A stretch of 64,000 nt of DNA, from assembly GCA_016214555.1 (NCBI GenBank), contig JACROF010000003.1, forward strand, positions 64,930 to 128,929, given 5' to 3'. This document shows, one piece after another, positions 52,650 through 64,000 of the stretch; within the stretch, counting starts at the first letter, position 1; the number at the start of each line of letters is the position of its first letter. Source of the DNA: Candidatus Levyibacteriota bacterium (GTDB lineage Bacteria; Patescibacteriota; Microgenomatia; Levybacterales; UBA12049). The notes beneath the pieces were generated by a model. It saw only the letters and a list, made by a program, of their open reading frames with translations. It ran no database searches and was not told the DNA's origin. The translations under genes and the position numbers were made by a program.

Positions 52650-53402
52650 ATGAAACTTGCCTATCTTAGCCTATCAATCCTCTTGGCCTTCTTTTTTTTA
52701 ACTGCTCAAAAAGCTATCAATCTAGAACAAATTAGTGCATTTACCATGAGTAATGCGAATTGGATTATCGATTTTGCCAATCTCAATATGACATCCGGAA
52801 AACCAACAGGGCCAAATTACAAAGTCAGTAACACCGTTGGCCAGATTGCACCAGGTCTGTACTCAGGAACCAATTTTAAGGTTCGAGCAGGCTTCCAATA
52901 TGTTTATTCCATCATCCCCTTTAGCTTTACCATAAGCACGCTTGAAATTAACTTTGGCACACTTATTCCAACCAATCCCGTGACAAGAACAAACGTCCTA
53001 ACCCTTAGCAATGGCTCGGCAAATGGCTACTCAGTCCTTGCCTATGAAAATCACGCACTACTGATCCCGGGAAGCGGCAGAATGATCCCAGACACAAGCT
53101 GTGATGCCGGAACATGCACGCAAATAACAGCAGCTGCATGGACGAGTTCGCTTGCGTATGGATTTGGATATCGATGCGACAACCTCAGCGGTACAGACTG
53201 TTCAACAGACTTCTCAACAGGTACTTTTTATAAGCAATTTGCCAATGACTCTGATGGCGAAACTGCCCAAGCTGTTATGAGAGGGGTGAATGTCGGAAGG
53301 TCAAAACAAGTGCAAATTACCTACAAAGCAAATATTTCAGCAACCCAACCTCCTGGAGAATATACCAATCAAATAATTTACTTGGCAATACCAACTTTTT
53401 AA
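52650..53402 (+). CDS. Secreted small WxL-like protein
   Basis: Signal peptide, INFGTL, NGYSV and C-terminal TQPPGEYTNQIIYLAIPTF. Confidence 0.65.
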   Translation: MKLAYLSLSILLAFFFLTAQKAINLEQISAFTMSNANWIIDFANLNMTSGKPTGPNYKVSNTVGQIAPGLYSGTNFKVRAGFQYVYSIIPFSFTISTLEINFGTLIPTNPVTRTNVLTLSNGSANGYSVLAYENHALLIPGSGRMIPDTSCDAGTCTQITAAAWTSSLAYGFGYRCDNLSGTDCSTDFSTGTFYKQFANDSDGETAQAVMRGVNVGRSKQVQITYKANISATQPPGEYTNQIIYLAIPTF

Positions 53403-53404
53403 TT

Positions 53405-54469
53405 ATGAATAAACATATAGAGTATAAAGTAGCAAGAATTAAGCAAAAGGCAGTAATAATTAGCTTGCTATCTACTTTATTCTGCATACTATCTACTAAT
53501 CAAATAGATGCTGCAAGCTTTGAGCTTTCCGTCTCGCCGCCGATCTTTGAGATAGAATTAACTCCTCCAGCCGTTGCCGATGTGAATGAACAAATTATTC
53601 TTGAAAACACCGGTGATGATGGTATGAATTTAGAAATTGATTTCAGACTATTCAGACCTCAAGACAAGAACGGCGATATTGTCTATCTTAAAAAGGGAGA
53701 CCTCTATGGGGATGATCCTTTAATCCTTAAAAGAATTCGCATTATGGATGACGATAAAGAGATTCATGAACTTTATCTCTCTCCCCATACCAAGAAAAAA
53801 CTTAACCTCATCATAACTATTCCCAAAGATGAGCCACCCTCTGATTATTACTTCAGTATTCTTTTCTCATCAAAGGAGGATGAAAAACAAAATAACGGCT
53901 CGTATACAGAGTCAATTGGCGGTGTTGCGGTCAATACTCTCCTTTCTATCGGCCCTAAAGACTCAACGAAAGGCTCTATCGAAGAATTTTCGACGGATTT
54001 TTTTAGGACTGAAGGCCCGGTGCCTTTTGTCGTGACGATCCACAACAAGAGCAAACATTTTATCTCCCCTCAAGCAAGTATAGCTATCAGAAACATGTTT
54101 GGACAAACGATAGGAAAGATTGAGCTTTTACCCGTAAATATCCTTTCAGAATCAAGTAGATCTCTTCCCAGTAAAGAACAATTTGTTATCAACGCTCAAG
54201 AAACTGACGAGGATAAAAAAACAAAAAAACAAAATGCGACCATACTTAAGCTCATCTCACACTCTCTTACTCCAGTTGCAGTCTGGCCTGAGTCTTTTCT
54301 CCTTGGCCCCTACTCTGCCACCCTCACAGTTGCTCTTTCAGAAAATGGCCCTTTATATGTGAAGACTATTCATTTTTTCGCATTTCCACTTCATATTCTT
54401 ATTGGATTTATCATCGCTATTCTTCTTCTCTTAACAATTAAGCATCGACTCGCGTACAAAAAAGTTTGA
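53405..54469 (+). CDS. DUF916/DUF3324-like (WxL-interacting) surface protein with C-terminal TM
   Basis: LSVSPPIFE, I.IP...P..DYY..I.F, N...H...P...I...NMFG and LLGPY.A.L; TM plus basic tail. Confidence 0.65.
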   Translation: MNKHIEYKVARIKQKAVIISLLSTLFCILSTNQIDAASFELSVSPPIFEIELTPPAVADVNEQIILENTGDDGMNLEIDFRLFRPQDKNGDIVYLKKGDLYGDDPLILKRIRIMDDDKEIHELYLSPHTKKKLNLIITIPKDEPPSDYYFSILFSSKEDEKQNNGSYTESIGGVAVNTLLSIGPKDSTKGSIEEFSTDFFRTEGPVPFVVTIHNKSKHFISPQASIAIRNMFGQTIGKIELLPVNILSESSRSLPSKEQFVINAQETDEDKKTKKQNATILKLISHSLTPVAVWPESFLLGPYSATLTVALSENGPLYVKTIHFFAFPLHILIGFIIAILLLLTIKHRLAYKKV

Positions 54470-54546
54470 AGCCATAAACAATCAGAACTGTCACAATTTG
54501 ACCTATTCTAGCCCTTGACAACCTGACATTTTTCACACAATACTGG

Positions 54547-55992
54547 ATGTACATGAGAAAATACTTTCTGCTCTTATTCTCGTTGTTTTCGTTGGCTCTT
54601 TTTTTTGTGGTCGCAACACAAAAAACCGAAGCTGCTTCCTTACTCAATGCTTCAGCAAGTGCTACAACCTCACGACCCTCCCCATCATCCCCCCTCTTTA
54701 TCCCAGATCCCATGAGCATAGGAACCTCATCAGCAAGAGTCTATGACAATCTCTCAACTTTTCTCTCATCTGATTCTGCAAAATTCTTTAACAACGGCGT
54801 TTTTAGCGAGATATTAACTGTCGCTACAACCTCAGCTGATAGACAAACGCTTTTTTTCACAGGCGCAGCCACTGCTGCCCACAATAGAACTTCAGTTATT
54901 ACTGCTCCCATCACTGCGATGCATCAATTTGTGTTTACTACCCAAACCGCTATCCCTGTTAACGGAACTATCGAGATCACGTATCCAAACTCAGGATCCC
55001 TGGATACTGTCCAGGCATCGCCTTCGGCAAATACCTGGATGTTTAATGGGCTATCAACAAGCAATATTAAGCAAAAAATTAGCCAAGGCACTGCTGGATG
55101 CAACTGGACCAAGTCTGGAGATACCAATGGCTCAGGCGGGCAGACTCCAAAGTTAGTCTGTACAGTAACTGGAGCAATTATCCCAGCAGGAGCAACAGTG
55201 TGGGTTTGGGTTGGCTGCTCTACTTATACCAATGGCACCTCATGCGCAACACAAAATCCCAACCTTATTAACCCAACAGCTTTAACAGGACGAGGTATCG
55301 CTGATGTAAAAAATATCAATGTGATTACGTATGATGTATCTGGAGGCAACATTCTTGACTCATCGTCGCTGAAAATGGGGACCATTGATTCGGTCTTTGT
55401 CGTTGCTCACGTTGATCCTACATTCACCTTCCGTATTGATGGCGTGGCATCAGGAGTAGATATCAACACGTTATGCTCAGGCTATACGAGCGCAACATAT
55501 TTCACCCAAAACCAAAGTGGTGTTAACTTCCCCACAACAGGAACTGATGTCAACTTAGGCACAGTCAGTAGCGGAGGACCAAATTATGCAGCGCAAAAAA
55601 TGAGCATTGTCTCCAACACCAGCGTTGGGTATGTAATCACTGCTACGTCTTCAGGATTCCTAGTAAACCCCTCGAGTGGAAAATACATCGTAAATACCCA
55701 AGGCAACGTCACAGCGAACAATACACCTGCACCTGTTGTGATGCCTGGCACGGGAGGGTTTGGTATCAATGCATGCGATAGTAGCAGCAGAGTTAACACG
55801 ACCACCTGGGGTACTACAGCACCGAAATTTGCCAATCCGTCACAAAACTTCTACTACACACTAGTAAACTATGCTGGAGCTCTCAGCGGCACGGACAATA
55901 TCTATGTAGTATACGGCGCTCAAGCGCAGGCAACGACACCTCCTGGAGACTACTGGGAAATTATGACATATACTGCCTCTGTAGCGTTTTAA
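54547..55992 (+). CDS. Secreted WxL-like/fimbrial-like surface protein (paralog of 37618-39060)
   Basis: Signal peptide (TEA-AS); C-terminal TPPGDYWEIMTYTASVAF. Confidence 0.75.
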   Translation: MYMRKYFLLLFSLFSLALFFVVATQKTEAASLLNASASATTSRPSPSSPLFIPDPMSIGTSSARVYDNLSTFLSSDSAKFFNNGVFSEILTVATTSADRQTLFFTGAATAAHNRTSVITAPITAMHQFVFTTQTAIPVNGTIEITYPNSGSLDTVQASPSANTWMFNGLSTSNIKQKISQGTAGCNWTKSGDTNGSGGQTPKLVCTVTGAIIPAGATVWVWVGCSTYTNGTSCATQNPNLINPTALTGRGIADVKNINVITYDVSGGNILDSSSLKMGTIDSVFVVAHVDPTFTFRIDGVASGVDINTLCSGYTSATYFTQNQSGVNFPTTGTDVNLGTVSSGGPNYAAQKMSIVSNTSVGYVITATSSGFLVNPSSGKYIVNTQGNVTANNTPAPVVMPGTGGFGINACDSSSRVNTTTWGTTAPKFANPSQNFYYTLVNYAGALSGTDNIYVVYGAQAQATTPPGDYWEIMTYTASVAF

Positions 55993-56041
55993 AAAGACAC
56001 TTTACAGCACAATGGTAGTATGGTAGCGTTGAAGTATAGCT

Positions 56042-57019
56042 ATGATAATTAAAACTGCCCAAAAAGGATCATTGGTTGCAAAAATACAAACAGGAGCGAT
56101 TGTTACCTCTCTTGCTCTTTCCGTTTTGGGAACAGCAACCTACACAGGCCTTGTTGATCAAATATCAGCACAGGCTAGCACAGCTAGATCCATAACTATT
56201 ACTCCTCCATCTCTCCCCTTTACTGTTAATCCTGGAGAAAAAAAGGAAGGTGTTTTGGGACTAATTAATGAGTCAAATGACGACATTGTCTTTAGCGTTG
56301 TCATCTACGATATGATCGTTGAGGACAATCAAGGAACACCAGAATTTCTTCCCGCTGGAACAATCTCAAGTAACAAATACGCTGCGAGTTCATGGATAGG
56401 CGTTGACTCACCTAGTCTTCTCGTAAAGGCGCACTCACGAGGCACTCTTCACTACTATGTACAAGTCCCAGCTGATGCAGGTCCTGGCGGTCATTATGCA
56501 GGCATCGTGTATCACCCTGAGAGAGTTGAGATCGCAAAAGGCTCAGGAGCAGCAATCAATCAACAATTAGCAACGCTTGTTTACTTTGACGTAGCAGGAC
56601 CTGTTAAGGAAAGTGCTCAGGTAAAACAGTTTAGCGCTCCAGGATTCTCAGAGTATGGACCCGTAAAGCTTACTACAGAAATCAGCAACTTCGGAGACAC
56701 TCACATCAAACCAACTGGAACTCTGACCGTAACTGACATGCTTGGAAAAGTTGTAGCTTCAAAGAAGATTCAGGAGCAAAATATTTTTCCAGGAGGAATC
56801 TCTCGCCTATTTGAAGAATCAGTTGGTAAGAAATGGATGCTTGGAAAATATGAGGCAAAGCTAATGGCTACTTATGGTCGAAACAACAACCTTCCTCTTG
56901 TTGCCTCAGTTGCTTTCTGGGTATTCCCATGGAAGATAGCACTTCTCATCATCACACTTATCGTTGCAGCAATCCTTGGCTATCTGTACGTAAAGAAAAA
57001 CAAGCACACCCCGCAGTAG
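56042..57019 (+). CDS. DUF916/DUF3324-like surface protein with C-terminal TM
   Basis: ITITPP, V.PG, VPADA.PGGHYAGI, N.G.THIKP.G and GKY.A.L...YG; TM. Confidence 0.7.
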   Translation: MIIKTAQKGSLVAKIQTGAIVTSLALSVLGTATYTGLVDQISAQASTARSITITPPSLPFTVNPGEKKEGVLGLINESNDDIVFSVVIYDMIVEDNQGTPEFLPAGTISSNKYAASSWIGVDSPSLLVKAHSRGTLHYYVQVPADAGPGGHYAGIVYHPERVEIAKGSGAAINQQLATLVYFDVAGPVKESAQVKQFSAPGFSEYGPVKLTTEISNFGDTHIKPTGTLTVTDMLGKVVASKKIQEQNIFPGGISRLFEESVGKKWMLGKYEAKLMATYGRNNNLPLVASVAFWVFPWKIALLIITLIVAAILGYLYVKKNKHTPQ

Positions 57020-58068: not shown

Positions 58069-58891
58069 TAGTATAGTAGTATTAATTTTAAAAATGAGAG
58101 ACTATCAATCTATATATAAATATATTAATAGATATCAATAAATTATCTTACAAAGCTTCGCAAGAAAATCGATAACTAGTGGCACAAAGCAAAGTAAATC
58201 TCATATACAAGAGCAACATGGTAAGGAAAAGGACTAATTACGGTAGTGGAAAATGATAAGGCTATATTATTTGTGCCTAAAAAATAAAAATAGATTGAAT
58301 TATCAATCTAAATATAACTATTATTTTTCTATCAGTCTAATGACATGATTGACAAAACAACCCGAAAGCGAAATAGACATGAGGCTAATTATTGAAAAGT
58401 CATAACTTATAAAAAAGGTAAGGACCAATTTTTTACCCCTTTCACACAAGTAATGGGGAAGAAAAAATTAACAGTAGCTAAAAATCTTCTTGGAAATATA
58501 TCTAACTATATCACCTATCAAAAATACCGACGTAGGAATATTATGATATCTTTAGATATATTCACTGTTTTTTACCGAGAACGACATAGTCGAAAAAAGA
58601 AAGAAATATCGTTGTGAAATAATAAAAACTTATCAATTTTCTTATTATTTTTGTATCTTTATTAAGATATCTAAAAATATCTAAATATATCAATACTATT
58701 TTACTCTAGGGTATTGACAGCCTCAATCACACTTGCGAACATATTAATAGATGTATTTATTAATATATGTAAGATTTTCATAAAAGAGATAGGTGATAAT
58801 CGGTATAATCTATATAATCTCAAGGCTAGAAACCAAATCACAATCTTTAAAAAATCTTACAAAAATAGAATTCATCAAGAAGGAACAAGCT

Positions 58892-59083
58892 ATGAAAAAT
58901 CATAAAGTTGGGCACGATCTTATTTTCACAAGTAGAAAGTCGAATTCATCCATGAAAACGGCTGTGAAATATTCCTATGAGACTCACTCCTCTACTGGGG
59001 AGATGGATAGAATCATGATAATCCTTTCAGCAGTTGCACTGAGCTTCTTTGTTAGTCAATTCTTTTTGATTATTGCAAGATAG
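58892..59083 (+). CDS. 63-aa protein with C-terminal TM
   Basis: SD AAGGA before ATG 58892; ends 19 bp before the giant ORF. Confidence 0.5.
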   Translation: MKNHKVGHDLIFTSRKSNSSMKTAVKYSYETHSSTGEMDRIMIILSAVALSFFVSQFFLIIAR

Positions 59084-59102: not shown

Positions 59103-62100
59103 ATGGACTTATCTGCCCAGTTCAAATCGTTTCTTAGTAAACAGAAGAAGCCTGCTTCAAAGATAACGATTAAAAATTATATAGCTGACCTCAATCAGTT
59201 TGTTCGTTGGTACAAATCTCACTACAACAAGGATTTCCATCCATCGCAATTCACTTCTGAAGTCGTTGAGATCTACAAGACAACTCAAAGCGGTCTTTCT
59301 CCTGAATACAAAAATGCCACCTCCATCTCAGCTCGATCGCTCAAACGACATCTATCAACTCTTCGTAAATTTGCCAGCTTCCTAGTAGTAAAGGGCTATA
59401 TCTCAAGCTCGCCATTAGCTATTAACCATTCGCCATTAGCAAAATCTGACCCGTTCCATCTCAAAGCCTTCAAAGAGCATCTCTATCTCTCCAAATCATC
59501 GGATCTTACTATAAAAAACTATATCAATGACATCAAGCAGCTTTGTCACTGGGCTGGAGAAATAGATGATATCTCTTCATTGATTAATAGCGCCTCACTA
59601 AAAAACTACCGAGAAAATCTTATTGCTAACTCTGGCCTCTCTGAGGCCTCAATACATCGCAAGCTTTCCTCTCTTCGCCGCTATGCGAGATTTATGCAAG
59701 AGAAGAACTTTATCAATGCAAAAGACTTATCTGAATACTTAGACCAGACTCTTACTAGCAAATTGTTAGCAGGAGCAAGATCACTGGAAGAGGCAAAAGA
59801 AAGATTGTCGCCAGGGCAAGATCTAAACAGAACTCAGCAATCAACCATACCTGCTGCTAATCATGACTTGGACACTTCCGCTCTGACCTCAAGTGCTCAG
59901 CTCCCTGAGAAGCCAGTATCTAGTATTTCGTATCAAGTATCTAGCAAAGATACTAATAAATCTCAGCTAAATACTAAATACCAAATACCAAATACTAGAT
60001 ATTCCCGTTTTGCTCCTTTCAGGCTAAGCCAAAAAATTCTCGCCCCTCTTGTTCTCGGATTTGATAATTCAGTCGTATCACTATCGGCAAAGGCACTTGA
60101 AAAAGCTCAATACCTTTCCTGGATAGCCAGAGGAAAGCAGATATTCTCATCTAGTGCTAAAAATGGTTTAGCTGATGCTATTAAAATAAAATCTATCGTT
60201 CCAGGCAATGTCCTTCCCAGCTTACTTCAAAATAACAGTGGATCTTTGCTAAATACTAAATACCAAACTTCAAATGCTAAATACCAAATACTAAATACTA
60301 AATACTCCCCCCTCCATCCTTCCCACCCATCATTTTCTAGTCTTCCGTTCCACCTCCGAGCTCTCGGTCATGCCCGACATACTAGACCAAACTGGTATAA
60401 AAAATATCATTCCTATTCAGTGGTGCATTATTTCCACTTTGCTGCACTTATCATCATGATGTCGGCTCTTGGATTTGGCTTGTACCGCTCGTTTATTGAA
60501 AATCCACAAAAAGAGCAGGCTCTTGCTGCTCCGCCAACAGCACCGCCAAGGCTCCTCTCGTTTCAAGGTCGGCTGACAGACTCAAACGACAACCCTATCA
60601 CAACCGCAAAAGACTTGCGGTTTACGGTTTATAATGACGCCTCTGCTACAGGCGCGGCCCTCCTCTGGCAAGAGACTCAACAGCTCACCCCAGACCAGGA
60701 TGGCATATTTTCTATACTCTTGGGGTCAAGTACTGCCATTCCTTCAACAGTATTTACCGACAACTCAACTCTCTATCTTGGCATCACTGTCCAATCTGAT
60801 AGCGAGCTTACTCCTCGTCAGCAAATTGCGACAGTTGCCTTTGCAGCAAATGCCGAAACCATCCAAGGCCTTCTTCCAAGCACAGGGGCAGGCGCTGGTC
60901 AAACAAATGTAGTCCTTGCTCTTGACTCAAGCGGCAATTTAACAATTGGCGGGACTGCTAACCCTACTTTTTCAGCAACGGGTGGATCATTTACGCTCTC
61001 TGGAAAAACATTAGCGCTCAACACAACAGCTGGCTCAAATGGCAATGTCACTCTTACCCCCGACGGAGTCGGCATCATCCAGCTCAATGCGCCAGTCCAA
61101 AACACAAACACAAATTATCGAAACAACATACCAACTGCTAAAGGTGCTGTTGAGATCGATGATATGTTTGCTGTCTTAGCTACATCCTCAGGTCAATCAG
61201 CATTCACTCTCAACCAAGACAGCACTGGTCCGCTGATTAGCGCTTCAACAAGTGGAGTTGCTAAATTTACCATTGCCAATGATGGCTCTGGCTACTTTGC
61301 AGGATCTGTCGGCATCGGTGATGTTACACCCGATGCTCCTCTTGATGTCGTTGGTGATGTCTATATCAGCGATGGGCTTAGTCTCTATGAAACAGCAGTC
61401 TCAGATGGCACAGTTGAAGCGACCAAATTCTGCACAGGAGATGGTGAGACTAATTGTGTTACAGACTTCTCTGCTCTCGTGTCTGGAAGTAGTTATTGGC
61501 TCAGAAATCTTGGAGCACTCTCTCCTGCAAATGTGACTGATGATTTGCTTCTAGGGGCAAATGCAACCACAAGTGCAATTGTAAAACTTCCAGGCCTTAC
61601 CAACAATAATGCATTCTTTAATCTAGGAACTGGCAATGTTGGAATAGGTACCACAGCACCTGTTGCCAAATTAGACATACGAGGCTCTGGCATCTCCTCC
61701 CCTGTTGCTTCTATCTCAGGACAGACAAATGCTGTAGCTGCATTAGTCGTTGACAACAAAGTTGGAGATCTTTTTGCAGCTTCAAGTTCCGGATTAACAA
61801 GGTTTGTGATCACCCAGGCCGGAAATGTCGGCATCGGCCTTGGGACTATCATGCCCGTACAAGCACTAGACGTTTCAGGCAATGGCATGTTCCGCAATTC
61901 AGGAGATCTTGCCTCTACCTTCAGAGGTATTCATGTTCTTCCTACAACGACAACATCTGGTGGAAGCAACCAAGTAGTGAGAGGGTACTCAACCTCAAAT
62001 GGCTTTGCGCTTGAAGGGGGGAATACAGCCTTTGGCGCAACGCCTGCAACCATTGTCCTAAACGGACCGGGTGGCTACATATCATTTCAAACAAACACAA

Positions 62101-64000
62101 CAAATAGAAATGCTATTGGTGCATCTGAAAAAATGCGTATCACTAGCGATGGCAATATAGGTATTGGCACTACCGCTCCCCTTGCAACACTTCATGTTGC
62201 TAGTATTTCGGCAAAAGCGCTTGTGATCCTAGATCAAAACAACTCAACCCAGGATATTTTCACAGCTTCAGCTGCAGGAGTTACTAAATTTGTGATTAAT
62301 AATGGAGGCAATGTTGGAATTCTTGATAACAGTCCTGATGCGCCACTTGATGTCGTCGGAGATGTATACATAAGTGATGGTTTGAGTCTTTTTGAGACAG
62401 CAGTTAGTGATGGCACAGTAGAAGCGACTCAGTTCTGCACTGGTGATGGAGAAACTAACTGTGTAACAGATTTCTCAGCTCTCGTATCTGGAAGTAGCTA
62501 TTGGCAATTAAACAATAAAGTCCTCTCCCCAGGCAACTCTACCCATGATCTAGCTATTGGCGGCACAGCTACAAGCAGTGCCCTCTTCCAAGTATTTGCA
62601 GTAGGTACGAATGCAGGAACTGCATCTAGTTCAGGTCAACTGACCTTCAGGGGTACTACAGATCCTAAGATTAATATTCTTAATGGAGAGGCATTTGGGA
62701 TTAGCACCTCTGCGGGTGGAGATGCTGGGCTTACTGAGAGATTGACGATCACTAATGATGGTAACGTAGGGATTGGAAGTACCTTGCCTACACAAAAACT
62801 TTTTGTTGATGGAAACATTGGTATCACAGCAGGAGCAGCAAACAGCTTTATTGGAAGTAGTACATTTAATGGTTACAACCCAGCTGACAATGGAGGTAGG
62901 GCTGGAATAAATGCAGCAGCTAGTTTTTATCTCAATCTAGACTCAAATAATGATGGGACGACAGCTTTTTTCCAAATTGCAAAAGACTCTAACTCGCTCT
63001 CAGGCGGAACGCAGCTTTTCACAGTTAATGAGTCTGGAAATGTCGGGATCGGCACAACAACTAATCATGGATTTGTTCACATAAATGGAGGCACACAGGG
63101 AGGAAATGCAGCACTTGTTATCAATCAAACAGGTGCTCAGACAAATGACATCTTCACCGCATCATCATCTGGCGCCACCCGATTTAGTCTTGCAGGCGAT
63201 GGATCAGCCACCCACTCTGCTGTGACAAGCGGTGGATATGCCTATAGACTTACTGCCAACAATCTCACAACCGGAACAGGTATGTATCTTTCCTCAACTA
63301 GCACTGGACTTAGCACAGGTGGACTTCTGGCTCTAGACTGGTCACCAGGGTCTTCAACTGTCGCCACCGGCGATCTTTTGAGTCTCAATGTTGGAGCCAA
63401 TGGAACGTTGGGAAATATCTTTAATGTTAAAGATAATGGATCTAGTGTCTTCTCTGTCTCACAGAGTCAAATCACAGCTGCCCTCCCTACTTCATTTACT
63501 GCAGCTGGAGATACCTCATTTGCCTATGACATCAATTTTACCAATCCAACTGCTTCATACATCAAGAGTGCGGCTCCACTCTATCTCCAGGCTGGAGAAA
63601 CGTTTAACTCATCAGATCTGACATTACAAACATATAATGCAGGCAATGTCATCATTGACTCACAAGCATTTGTTACCAATTACGCAGCCACTGTCTCTGG
63701 CCAGCTGGTTGTCGGCACATCAACAGCTCCTGCCAATATCGGCAATTTCTACCTGACCAACTCAGCTGAATTTGGTAAGTCTCTGGCTATTCTCAATCAG
63801 ACTGAGTCAAACGATATCTTAACAGGTAGCAGTAGCGGTGTATTTAAATTCGTTTTTAACCAAAATGGCAACCTAGGCATCGGCACTTCTCTTCCTGCTG
63901 CTCCTCTGGATGTAGTTGGAGATATATATGGTTCATCTGGTATCTCACTGTATAACACAGCTGTTAGTGATGACACAGTTGAGGCAGTAAGATTTTGCAC
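59103..64000 (+). CDS. Giant (>1630 aa, runs off window) membrane protein: two integrase core-binding (SAM-like) domains, TM, tail-fibre-like repeat region
   Basis: Not in track (no stop). I translated 59103-60580 without stops and the frame is the same at 64000. TIKNY..DL..F..W...S..S.KR.LSTLRKF occurs twice; TM at about 60423-60490; then LSFQGRLTD, G.FS..LG, LYLG.TV..D.E.TPRQ.IA.V.FA.NA and many GNVGIGTT.P repeats. Confidence 0.85.
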   Translation, partial: MDLSAQFKSFLSKQKKPASKITIKNYIADLNQFVRWYKSHYNKDFHPSQFTSEVVEIYKTTQSGLSPEYKNATSISARSLKRHLSTLRKFASFLVVKGYISSSPLAINHSPLAKSDPFHLKAFKEHLYLSKSSDLTIKNYINDIKQLCHWAGEIDDISSLINSASLKNYRENLIANSGLSEASIHRKLSSLRRYARFMQEKNFINAKDLSEYLDQTLTSKLLAGARSLEEAKERLSPGQDLNRTQQSTIPAANHDLDTSALTSSAQLPEKPVSSISYQVSSKDTNKSQLNTKYQIPNTRYSRFAPFRLSQKILAPLVLGFDNSVVSLSAKALEKAQYLSWIARGKQIFSSSAKNGLADAIKIKSIVPGNVLPSLLQNNSGSLLNTKYQTSNAKYQILNTKYSPLHPSHPSFSSLPFHLRALGHARHTRPNWYKKYHSYSVVHYFHFAALIIMMSALGFGLYRSFIENPQKEQALAAPPTAPPRLLSFQGRLTDSNDNPITTAKDLRFTVYNDASATGAALLWQETQQLTPDQDGIFSILLGSSTAIPSTVFTDNSTLYLGITVQSDSELTPRQQIATVAFAANAETIQGLLPSTGAGAGQTNVVLALDSSGNLTIGGTANPTFSATGGSFTLSGKTLALNTTAGSNGNVTLTPDGVGIIQLNAPVQNTNTNYRNNIPTAKGAVEIDDMFAVLATSSGQSAFTLNQDSTGPLISASTSGVAKFTIANDGSGYFAGSVGIGDVTPDAPLDVVGDVYISDGLSLYETAVSDGTVEATKFCTGDGETNCVTDFSALVSGSSYWLRNLGALSPANVTDDLLLGANATTSAIVKLPGLTNNNAFFNLGTGNVGIGTTAPVAKLDIRGSGISSPVASISGQTNAVAALVVDNKVGDLFAASSSGLTRFVITQAGNVGIGLGTIMPVQALDVSGNGMFRNSGDLASTFRGIHVLPTTTTSGGSNQVVRGYSTSNGFALEGGNTAFGATPATIVLNGPGGYISFQTNTTNRNAIGASEKMRITSDGNIGIGTTAPLATLHVASISAKALVILDQNNSTQDIFTASAAGVTKFVINNGGNVGILDNSPDAPLDVVGDVYISDGLSLFETAVSDGTVEATQFCTGDGETNCVTDFSALVSGSSYWQLNNKVLSPGNSTHDLAIGGTATSSALFQVFAVGTNAGTASSSGQLTFRGTTDPKINILNGEAFGISTSAGGDAGLTERLTITNDGNVGIGSTLPTQKLFVDGNIGITAGAANSFIGSSTFNGYNPADNGGRAGINAAASFYLNLDSNNDGTTAFFQIAKDSNSLSGGTQLFTVNESGNVGIGTTTNHGFVHINGGTQGGNAALVINQTGAQTNDIFTASSSGATRFSLAGDGSATHSAVTSGGYAYRLTANNLTTGTGMYLSSTSTGLSTGGLLALDWSPGSSTVATGDLLSLNVGANGTLGNIFNVKDNGSSVFSVSQSQITAALPTSFTAAGDTSFAYDINFTNPTASYIKSAAPLYLQAGETFNSSDLTLQTYNAGNVIIDSQAFVTNYAATVSGQLVVGTSTAPANIGNFYLTNSAEFGKSLAILNQTESNDILTGSSSGVFKFVFNQNGNLGIGTSLPAAPLDVVGDIYGSSGISLYNTAVSDDTVEAVRFC
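61330..64000 (+). repeat. Long internal coding repeat, 3 copies (about 61330-61500, 62335-62505, 63898 to the end)
   Basis: PDAPLDVVGDVYISDGLSL(Y/F)ETAVSDGTVEAT(K/Q)FCTGDGETNCVTDFSALVSGSSYW occurs twice; the third copy is diverged. Confidence 0.85.

Follow-up and report, generated by a model that had tools for sequence, protein, structure and literature searches.

What is the function of a gene that joins the DNA-binding part of a recombinase to a giant surface fibre? This question was raised by an open reading frame (ORF) at the end of a 64,000-nucleotide stretch from a Candidatus Levyibacteriota bacterium (assembly GCA_016214555.1, contig JACROF010000003.1, positions 64,930 to 128,929), which is called the window here. 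The giant ORF started at 59103 on the plus strand and consisted of 1632 codons that remained open to the window end at 64000. We favoured the reading, to which we gave somewhat less than an even chance, that the product is a MAT-like host adhesin, predicted to be trimeric, whose inner core-binding (CB) head binds its own operator and limits its own synthesis. By its sequence matches the giant protein is homologous to MAT adhesins, and it is not a curated member of that family.

The head was formed by two domains.
59109..59420, plus strand: core-binding (SAM-like) domain 1, aa 3-106 (Pfam PF02899, AlphaFold model, XerD fold match)
59457..59726, plus strand: core-binding domain 2, aa 119-208 (Pfam PF02899 at aa 120-198, fold matches)

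Two Phage_int_SAM_1 (PF02899) matches were found in aa 1-216 (E 1.3e-17, 64.3 bits against a cut-off of 22.3), and CB domain 1 was modelled by AlphaFold with pLDDT 85-97. Structure comparison matched CB domain 1 to XerD (1a0p) with Z 12.3 and a root-mean-square deviation of 1.8 A over 88 residues, and CB domain 2 to 3nrw (Z 12.2) and 4a8e (Z 11.7). The best 25 fold matches were mostly recombinases, and the non-catalytic proteins Ndc10, SroF and MrpR (Z 7.6) were among them. Foldseek gave no match at E<=0.001 with either model. These results agreed with the sequence-only reading, an earlier note on this DNA, which had recognised two tandem integrase-type domains with no catalytic domain behind them. 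No Pfam match to the catalytic domain (R-K-H-R-H/W-Y) was obtained in the giant protein, and 122 sequences were searched without success (best E 1.3) with a profile built on the catalytic halves of the two Xer-type recombinases of the same genome. By this profile the catalytic domain was absent from the giant protein and from 120 homologues. The protein scored 65 bits against a XerC family cut-off of 335, and the genome kept two complete Xer-type recombinases at other places. The giant protein is not a recombinase. Homologues are nevertheless called 'site-specific integrase' or 'XerD' in public annotations, a mislabelling that had been anticipated.

The residues of the DNA-facing helices were conserved across families. 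In 168 N-halves they were S in 79%, T/S in 100%, K/R in 91%, N in 89% and Y in 93%, and in 157 C-halves R in 98% and R/K in 72%. In XerH, the N-terminal helix bundle makes most of the base-specific contacts and reads the inner bases of each arm, as described in part of PMC5241119.

The following features lay between the head and the end of the window.
59766..60413, plus strand: predicted cytoplasmic linker (pLDDT, column conservation)
60420..60485, plus strand: single predicted transmembrane helix, aa 440-461, N-terminus inside (hydropathy, model, charge bias)
60519..60530, plus strand: A473-L474-A475 / A476, possible signal-peptidase I site (read from the sequence)
60537..60902, plus strand: MAT N-terminal-like beta-sandwich (LSFQGRLTD domain), aa 479-600 (NF053851, model)
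60903..64000, plus strand: conserved neck (to about aa 730) and variable fibre shaft, running on to the contig end (phmmer, motif counts)

A linker was present between the CB domains and the helix, as had been read, but it was not featureless. Residues 222-293 and 363-391 were disordered and variable, with pLDDT under 50 and column conservation of 0.01-0.2. Residues 301-350 and 404-437 were conserved helices (column conservation 0.5-0.67) and ended in RPNWYKKYH. No PHROG family matched the linker. Heptamer arrays (AAATACY) were observed in frame within its variable part, at window positions 59969-59996 and 60251-60306. The membrane helix spanned aa 439-466 in the structure model. The net charge was +3.05 before the helix and +0.81 after it, and it was higher before the helix in 80/95 loci. 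This was consistent with the one helix and the cytoplasmic head of the earlier note.

LSFQGRLTD was located at aa 485-493, behind the helix as previously noticed and within the MAT N-terminal-like sandwich. Residues 479-600 were aligned to model positions 12-78 (of 162) of NCBIfam NF053851 (Bdello_MAT_N) with E 5.9e-10, but the 39.2 bits did not reach the cut-off of 60. They were modelled as an immunoglobulin-like sandwich with pLDDT 87-96. The domain had no PHROG match, and the ESM Atlas returned only unnamed clusters for aa 476-600. Bdellovibrio MATs are trimeric surface fibres, and in all 21 the signal peptide is followed directly by a beta-rich, conserved N-terminal domain of about 130 aa, according to part of PMC10769870. 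The shaft matched Bdellovibrio MAT structures in phmmer, with E 1.6e-11 for 8ond (Bd2133), 1.8e-4 for 8oml and 8.2e-4 for 8on4. It had been described as more than 1100 aa of GNVGIG-type repeats. The motifs were confirmed, but the shaft in the window was about 1030 aa (aa 600-1632) and held 7 G[NST][VIL]G[IVL]G motifs among unrelated segments. The whole ORF on contig C4, which carries the window, held 14 such motifs and 12 capping-loop motifs ([VIL]G[IV][GN][TSD]xxPxxxL). Shaft length differed widely, the shortest being about 1,100 aa and the longest over 6,000 aa. Their cargo varied among homologues and included an intein (P0113), collagen repeats, LVIVD propellers, laminin G and H-type lectin domains.

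The gene was followed beyond the window in the assembly (1.05 Mb, 17 contigs). The same ORF had 2385 aa there and stopped 186 bp before the end of contig C4. At this stop (C4:131187) a sense codon was found in every covering run contig (X1 77.5/77.5 depth, X2 5.03/5.03), and the read depth tripled in the last bin of C4, as for a collapsed repeat. The run contigs came from three sequencing runs of one study, possibly the source of the assembly. One 25-kb run contig spanned the junction of head and fibre with 0 differences, and this excluded a stop or frameshift between them. Contig C6 carried a 5'-open frame of 1912 aa with the same repeat units as the C4 end (84% nucleotide identity), an S74 domain (PF13884, E 2e-15) with intact SDxRLK, and the C-terminus of the fibre family. 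Because C6 was the only other contig of the genome with this repeat family, we infer that the two frames likely belong to a single gene, whose product would reach up to about 4,400 aa. A peptidase S74, as suggested in the earlier note, was present on C6, and its place in the same gene depends on this join. Contig C6 ended in a long GGGTATT array.

A C-terminal chaperone motif was present in 81 of 98 full-length homologues. With our own patterns it was G2-like DxAE in 72 and S74 in 9, and 17 had neither. The S74 region matched phage tail families in PHROG. Behind the self-cleaving chaperone on C6 (L019:4199-5737), about 550 conserved residues were observed, ending in a beta sandwich with pLDDT 89-97. 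This region was weakly like tailspike tip sandwiches. Such a region is unusual for S74 proteins, and it is possibly a second adhesive piece that is released or retained.

The architecture was found class-wide in a survey of the kind that the earlier note had called for. Homologues numbered 174 among 7998 scored candidates, and all had the same order of CB domains and fibre. The named ones were Levybacteria, Gottesmanbacteria, Roizmanbacteria or Microgenomates proteins. Among the 120 homologues listed (of 174), 98 shared the same C-terminal motif. Among the 301 genomes that represented the class (Microgenomates type), the helix-plus-MAT module was matched in 133, mostly once, and 168 were without a match. 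In the bacterium's own taxonomic order, CB domains and module were in one frame in 17 of the 18 matching genomes. For the other families, 111 of 114 matching genomes were fetched, and these loci, with 4 second copies, were sorted by CB form. The CB2 domain was split in 46, 10 were split otherwise, 19 were fused with two CB domains and 26 with one, and 14 had none (4 of them second copies). CB sequence was thus in or directly before the fibre gene at 101/111 loci of other families. Outside the class, a CB domain was found in 1 of 22 examined loci (top-scoring only). The other 21 had a plain signal peptide, and two loci had a W-Y-x-x-W-H stretch similar to the conserved pre-helix end. In family f37 (L061-L065), V-L-[SA] came after the membrane helix of a second gene with two CB domains, which lacked the MAT domain and was glycine-rich in the rest. 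It was collagen-like in L063, so that the CB-helix head was reused on another stalk.

At the 46 loci, one half of CB2 was encoded by a small upstream gene and the other by the fibre gene, and both genes had starts of their own. The break was in a loop near the equivalent of aa 151-160 (about 59553-59582 in the window gene). The small protein stopped a few residues past helix B of CB2, and the fibre gene started at helix C. ATG, GTG or TTG was found, mostly 25-38 codons before helix D and often overlapping the upstream stop, in 46/56 split loci, and 9 of the 10 misses had no anchor for the regular expression. The gap ranged from overlap to over 700 nt. A programmed frameshift or bypass was rejected because of these gaps and the fixed starts. 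At least one of the 10 loci split otherwise (G028) looked like a frameshift. By sequence, the split loci fit two translated chains and not recoding. The DNA-facing residues were kept in both halves, which presumably complement each other. In a weakly resolved tree of 110 sequences (220-aa segment, FastTree), 13 changes between fused and split forms were counted against a shuffled mean of 37. Several clades with support of 0.95 or more contained both forms.

Two further observations were made in the gaps. A GC-rich hairpin lay directly after the stop of the small CB gene in seven families, with a central GGGGGA(A)CCAAA and compensating stem changes (L032, L044, L045, L069, L070, L073, L078, L080, L084 and L125, with a variant in L031 and L099). 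Its single-sequence z reached -6.7, and no Rfam match was found near threshold in 18 loci. In L049 and L084, inspection by eye showed an opposite-strand TTGACA/TATAAT-like promoter ahead of the start of the fibre gene.

The region upstream of the giant gene contained three features.
58490..58713, plus strand: conserved multi-motif block, likely regulatory (TGATAT at 58544, GTGAAA at 58614, TATC repeats at 58498-58691)
58714..58719, plus strand: TTGACA, predicted -35 box (TTGAC recurrence in motif loci)
58792..58829, plus strand: tandem 9-bp GTATAAT repeat with a YTYRARGCTA tail, candidate CB operator (leave-one-family-out matrix)

With the own family left out, the matrix scored 12 or more in 64 of 118 upstream regions, compared to 1/118 in shuffles. 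The GTATAAT element was the sole strong match in the genome (36.4, next 10.1). Among matches with 0-1 mismatch in the 301 genomes, 40 of 42 were within about 2 kb upstream of a fibre module, and one 1-mismatch match in a genome with no prior fibre match led to a further split locus. Matches with two mismatches were rejected as locus predictors (0/19). A reversed control pattern gave about 28 matches by our count. No copy of the element was found in the four families f14 (0/16), f19 (0/18), f28 (0/17) and f30 (0/16), in whose sampled genomes no CB-bearing fibre was seen. The element was kept as DNA, since third positions were T in 69/71 and 71/71, one-base indels occurred and the distance to the start varied. 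A leader peptide (YNLYN) was rejected because of this DNA-level conservation and the indels, and a regulon site because there was one match per genome.

TTGAC was found 39-100 bp before the tandem repeat in all 71 motif loci, with a sigma-70-like -10 box at 16-19 bp in 55/71. At the window copy, a full promoter was not called by a simple scan. The element is in a predicted operator position relative to the promoter. At similar distances from TTGAC in the same 71 loci, GTGAAA recurred in 46 (4.5 expected), TGATATA in 37 (4.9), TGCG[GT][GT]A in 30 (2.0) and CCGCA in 34 (5.6). A 300-bp block of such ordered motifs was present upstream in 17 family groups, and its window copy was without the CCGCA/TGCGG motifs. 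The upstream ATATC repeats pointed out earlier proved real, because 12 copies of ATATC/GATAT lay within 700 bp, more densely than anywhere else in the genome. In dif and loxP, the inner arms are TATA/ATAA-like.

The split form and the conserved promoter element shifted our reading to autoregulation. According to this reading, the fibre would be exported through the helix and the head left inside. The C-terminal S74 or G2-type chaperone would drive trimer folding and then cut itself. In the trimer, two or three direct repeats would meet several CB domains, contributed by the three heads, and binding just downstream of the -10 box would repress. The copy number of a protein of roughly 2,400-4,400 aa would thereby be under feedback control in a genome of 1 Mb. 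In the split lineages, CB2 would become complete only when a small soluble protein (CB1 and half of CB2) docks on the inner tail of the fibre, so that full DNA binding would need a fibre chain in the membrane. A later signal-peptidase cut would not change the trimer-head, repression and split-docking steps. MrpR, a recombinase fold turned repressor, provides a precedent, as presented in part of PMC10516654.

Several points weigh against autoregulation. The sign of regulation is a guess from position, and DNA binding by the CB head is predicted. TATAAT is at the same time the consensus of -10 boxes, and regulators other than the CB head could read the larger upstream block. A membrane-fixed repressor needs its promoter to come to the membrane. 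The search pattern was derived from these loci, so that the co-occurrence is partly circular, and kin are not independent. Scores under 12 were obtained in 54 of 118 upstream regions, including all of the CB-bearing families f13, f24, f29 and f43. In genomes without a fibre match, 19 of 20 element matches (all with 2 mismatches) had no CB gene behind them.

Permanent physical coupling of head and fibre, on which the sequence-only reading had built, is uncertain because of the A-x-A site behind the helix and because the homologous helix in CB-less relatives was an ordinary signal peptide. The membrane helix probably descended from the MAT signal peptide, and there is about an even chance that signal peptidase later frees the fibre from the head. 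After a cut behind A475, the MAT N-terminal domain would hold the mature fibre on the cell surface, and CB domains, linker and helix would remain as a membrane protein of their own. We considered this nearly as probable as its opposite, and it is compatible with the other readings, head and fibre being coupled only during export. The position of the domain in all 21 Bdellovibrio MATs (PMC10769870, in part) and the plain signal peptides in 21/22 loci outside the class, where the two W-Y-x-x-W-H-like stretches occur, argue for it. A strict [AVST]-x-A site was present behind the helix in 61/95 CB-bearing loci compared to 34 +/- 4.5 in shuffles, the loci being related. A/G/S occupied one column in 79/95, and [AVTSI][LF][AGS] stood at the cleavage-site position in 81/87 close homologues. 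However, the spacer between helix and MAT domain was 28 aa (24-36) in CB-bearing proteins and 17 in CB-less relatives (11 longer), the residue at -3 was often P, K, N, Q or E, and a few families were without any site.

The remaining explanations were ranked below autoregulation. The head could hold the chromosome, by the upstream block or non-specifically, at the host-gripping membrane site for positioning or segregation. A single copy in core synteny, one unique 300-bp multi-motif site per genome and the avidity of an inferred trimer are consistent with such a tether. We considered it unlikely, because the site is in a promoter position, 168/301 genomes of the class have no match, and the cleavage site may break the link. 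The site is also at neither origin nor terminus (in 13 one-contig genomes its distance to dnaA was 7.0-30.9% of the genome length). A link to origin or terminus is not supported by this position, and neither is the link to dif-like sites that had been raised; two intact Xer-type recombinases also remain in the genome. In the most far-reaching reading, Microgenomates would tie their single giant fibre to the chromosome. The trimer, left uncut, would keep its locus at the site of host attachment by means of domesticated recombinase domains, and in many families the split latch would let fibre assembly or host contact gate DNA binding. We considered this rather improbable. A one-component contact sensor, in which host binding at the tip alters DNA binding by the head across the membrane, would be built like ToxR, CadC and other transmembrane transcription regulators, and the conserved helices adjoin the membrane. 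It was rated as quite improbable, since the linker between head and helix is disordered and length-variable, the shafts differ so much in length, and there is no regulon because the element occurs once in the genome. About equally improbable is a protein-docking scaffold, in which the CB domains no longer bind DNA and another regulator reads the element. The repeated splitting within CB2, which shows protein-protein use, the degenerate CB copies in f11, f13, f37 and f40 and the CB-bearing families without the element agree with it. However, the exposed basic and polar residues of the DNA-facing helices were conserved in both halves, and the element was not found in sampled families without a CB fibre.

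DNA uptake or transfer, or a prophage relic with an integrase fragment fused to a tail fibre, was judged very improbable. For the transfer role that the earlier note had suggested, nothing was found except comEA and comEC beyond the divergent neighbour gene in 5/18 loci each, and for a relic the S74 region matches phage tail families. No phage genes were seen in the flanks of 18 loci, the neighbours are chromosomal and conserved in two named orders, the MAT N-terminal-like domain has no PHROG match, and the protein has one membrane helix and no channel-like part. The giant gene is a chromosomal core locus and not a prophage. The collapsed repeat and false stop at the contig end speak for an assembly artefact joining two genes. 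Such an artefact can practically be dismissed, because the same order was found in 174 homologues, 17/18 same-order genomes were fused, and the junction was covered without differences.

The giant gene was accompanied by conserved neighbours. Upstream, a cluster of secreted proteins was found in 14 of 18 named loci, and the other 4 had under 1.4 kb of flank. In the window (52650-57019) it consisted of two paralogous pairs, one with a weak WxLIP_PGBD match (E 0.071), and it may be a surface-anchoring partner of the giant gene. A divergent tRNA-synthetase-like gene (leuS, recognised by eye) lay beside the giant gene in 12/18 named loci. A Wzy_C/TPR membrane protein was downstream in 8/8 loci that reached the 3' end of the giant gene (e.g. 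L002:14664-16760) and is a possible glycosylation or assembly partner of the fibre. Another large surface protein, at C5:41707-47055, had 1782 aa, a membrane helix and many repeated lectin-like units (LamG-like by eye). One further ORF was listed between the GTATAAT element and the giant gene.
58886..59083, plus strand: small ORF of 63-65 aa with a hydrophobic end

Searching the fetched loci and the rest of the genome with tblastn gave no match to this ORF, which is probably outside the system.

How Patescibacteria attach to hosts and control attachment is an open question, as stated in part of PMC11665869. The giant gene, from an uncultured ultra-small bacterium, encodes a candidate adhesin that is single-copy and occurs class-wide, and that carries within itself a candidate regulator, for which a 30-bp target is defined. 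The range of MAT-like fibres is thereby extended to bacteria of the candidate phyla radiation. In addition, the gene presents a further use of the recombinase core-binding fold with no catalytic remnant and a natural split DNA-binding-type domain kept in many families, and it means that many 'site-specific integrase' labels in Microgenomates-type genomes are wrong. If the regulation of its own promoter by the inner end is true, a host-gripping fibre would be linked directly to DNA. Neither the parts nor the combination are ordinary. No description of a CB-fibre fusion was found in the literature, subscription journals and bioRxiv supplements being outside the coverage. The terms 'integrase' and 'S74' were absent from the giant-gene preprint (10.1101/2023.11.21.568195), and the 2 searched files of the MAT paper supplement (PMC10769870) contained no Patescibacteria term.

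Among known systems, the Bdellovibrio MATs (PMC10769870, in part; NF053851) share the homologous N-terminal beta domain, capping-loop-like VGIGxxxPxxxL motifs, a variable shaft, the structural-sequence matches to 8ond, 8oml and 8on4 and, if C6 belongs to the gene, S74 with SDxxxK. The giant protein differs in its predicted 440-aa cytoplasmic head with CB domains before the helix, in the roughly 550 conserved residues behind the chaperone and in its one copy per genome, compared to 21 in Bdellovibrio. Most of its close homologues carry G2-like DxAE (72/98) rather than S74 (9/98), and its score is below the family cut-off. XerC, XerD and XerA (PF02899; 1a0p, 4a8e, 5hxy) have the same four-helix fold and DNA-facing helix motifs. 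In contrast to them, the head has no catalytic domain and is tandem-duplicated, membrane-anchored and, in many families, divided between two genes. MrpR, the SPbeta master repressor (8a0a), also has a recombinase fold without recombination and represses at a repeated DNA element, whereas it keeps a dead catalytic domain and is soluble, according to part of PMC10516654; the giant protein has only CB domains, on a membrane fibre. Ndc10 (3sqi) and SroF (9rd5) are alike by fold.

ToxR and CadC consist of a cytoplasmic DNA-binding part, one helix and an external domain, and ToxR-like regulators use an OmpR-type winged helix. The giant protein has the same predicted topology, from hydropathy and charge bias. 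However, its head is not a winged helix but a recombinase CB fold by Pfam and structure, a fibre of several thousand residues is outside, and the apparent target is its own promoter only. In MYRF, self-cleavage releases a DNA-binding trimer, and a DNA-binding domain, a membrane helix and an S74-type trimerising self-cleavage module are likewise in one chain (7dc3, a weak match with E 0.054). In contrast, the helix separates S74 from the head in the giant protein, and self-cleavage could not set the head free, the order in homologues being CB, helix, shaft and chaperone. The giant protein would work like a transmembrane regulator and like a MAT fibre, and it is a curated member of neither group.

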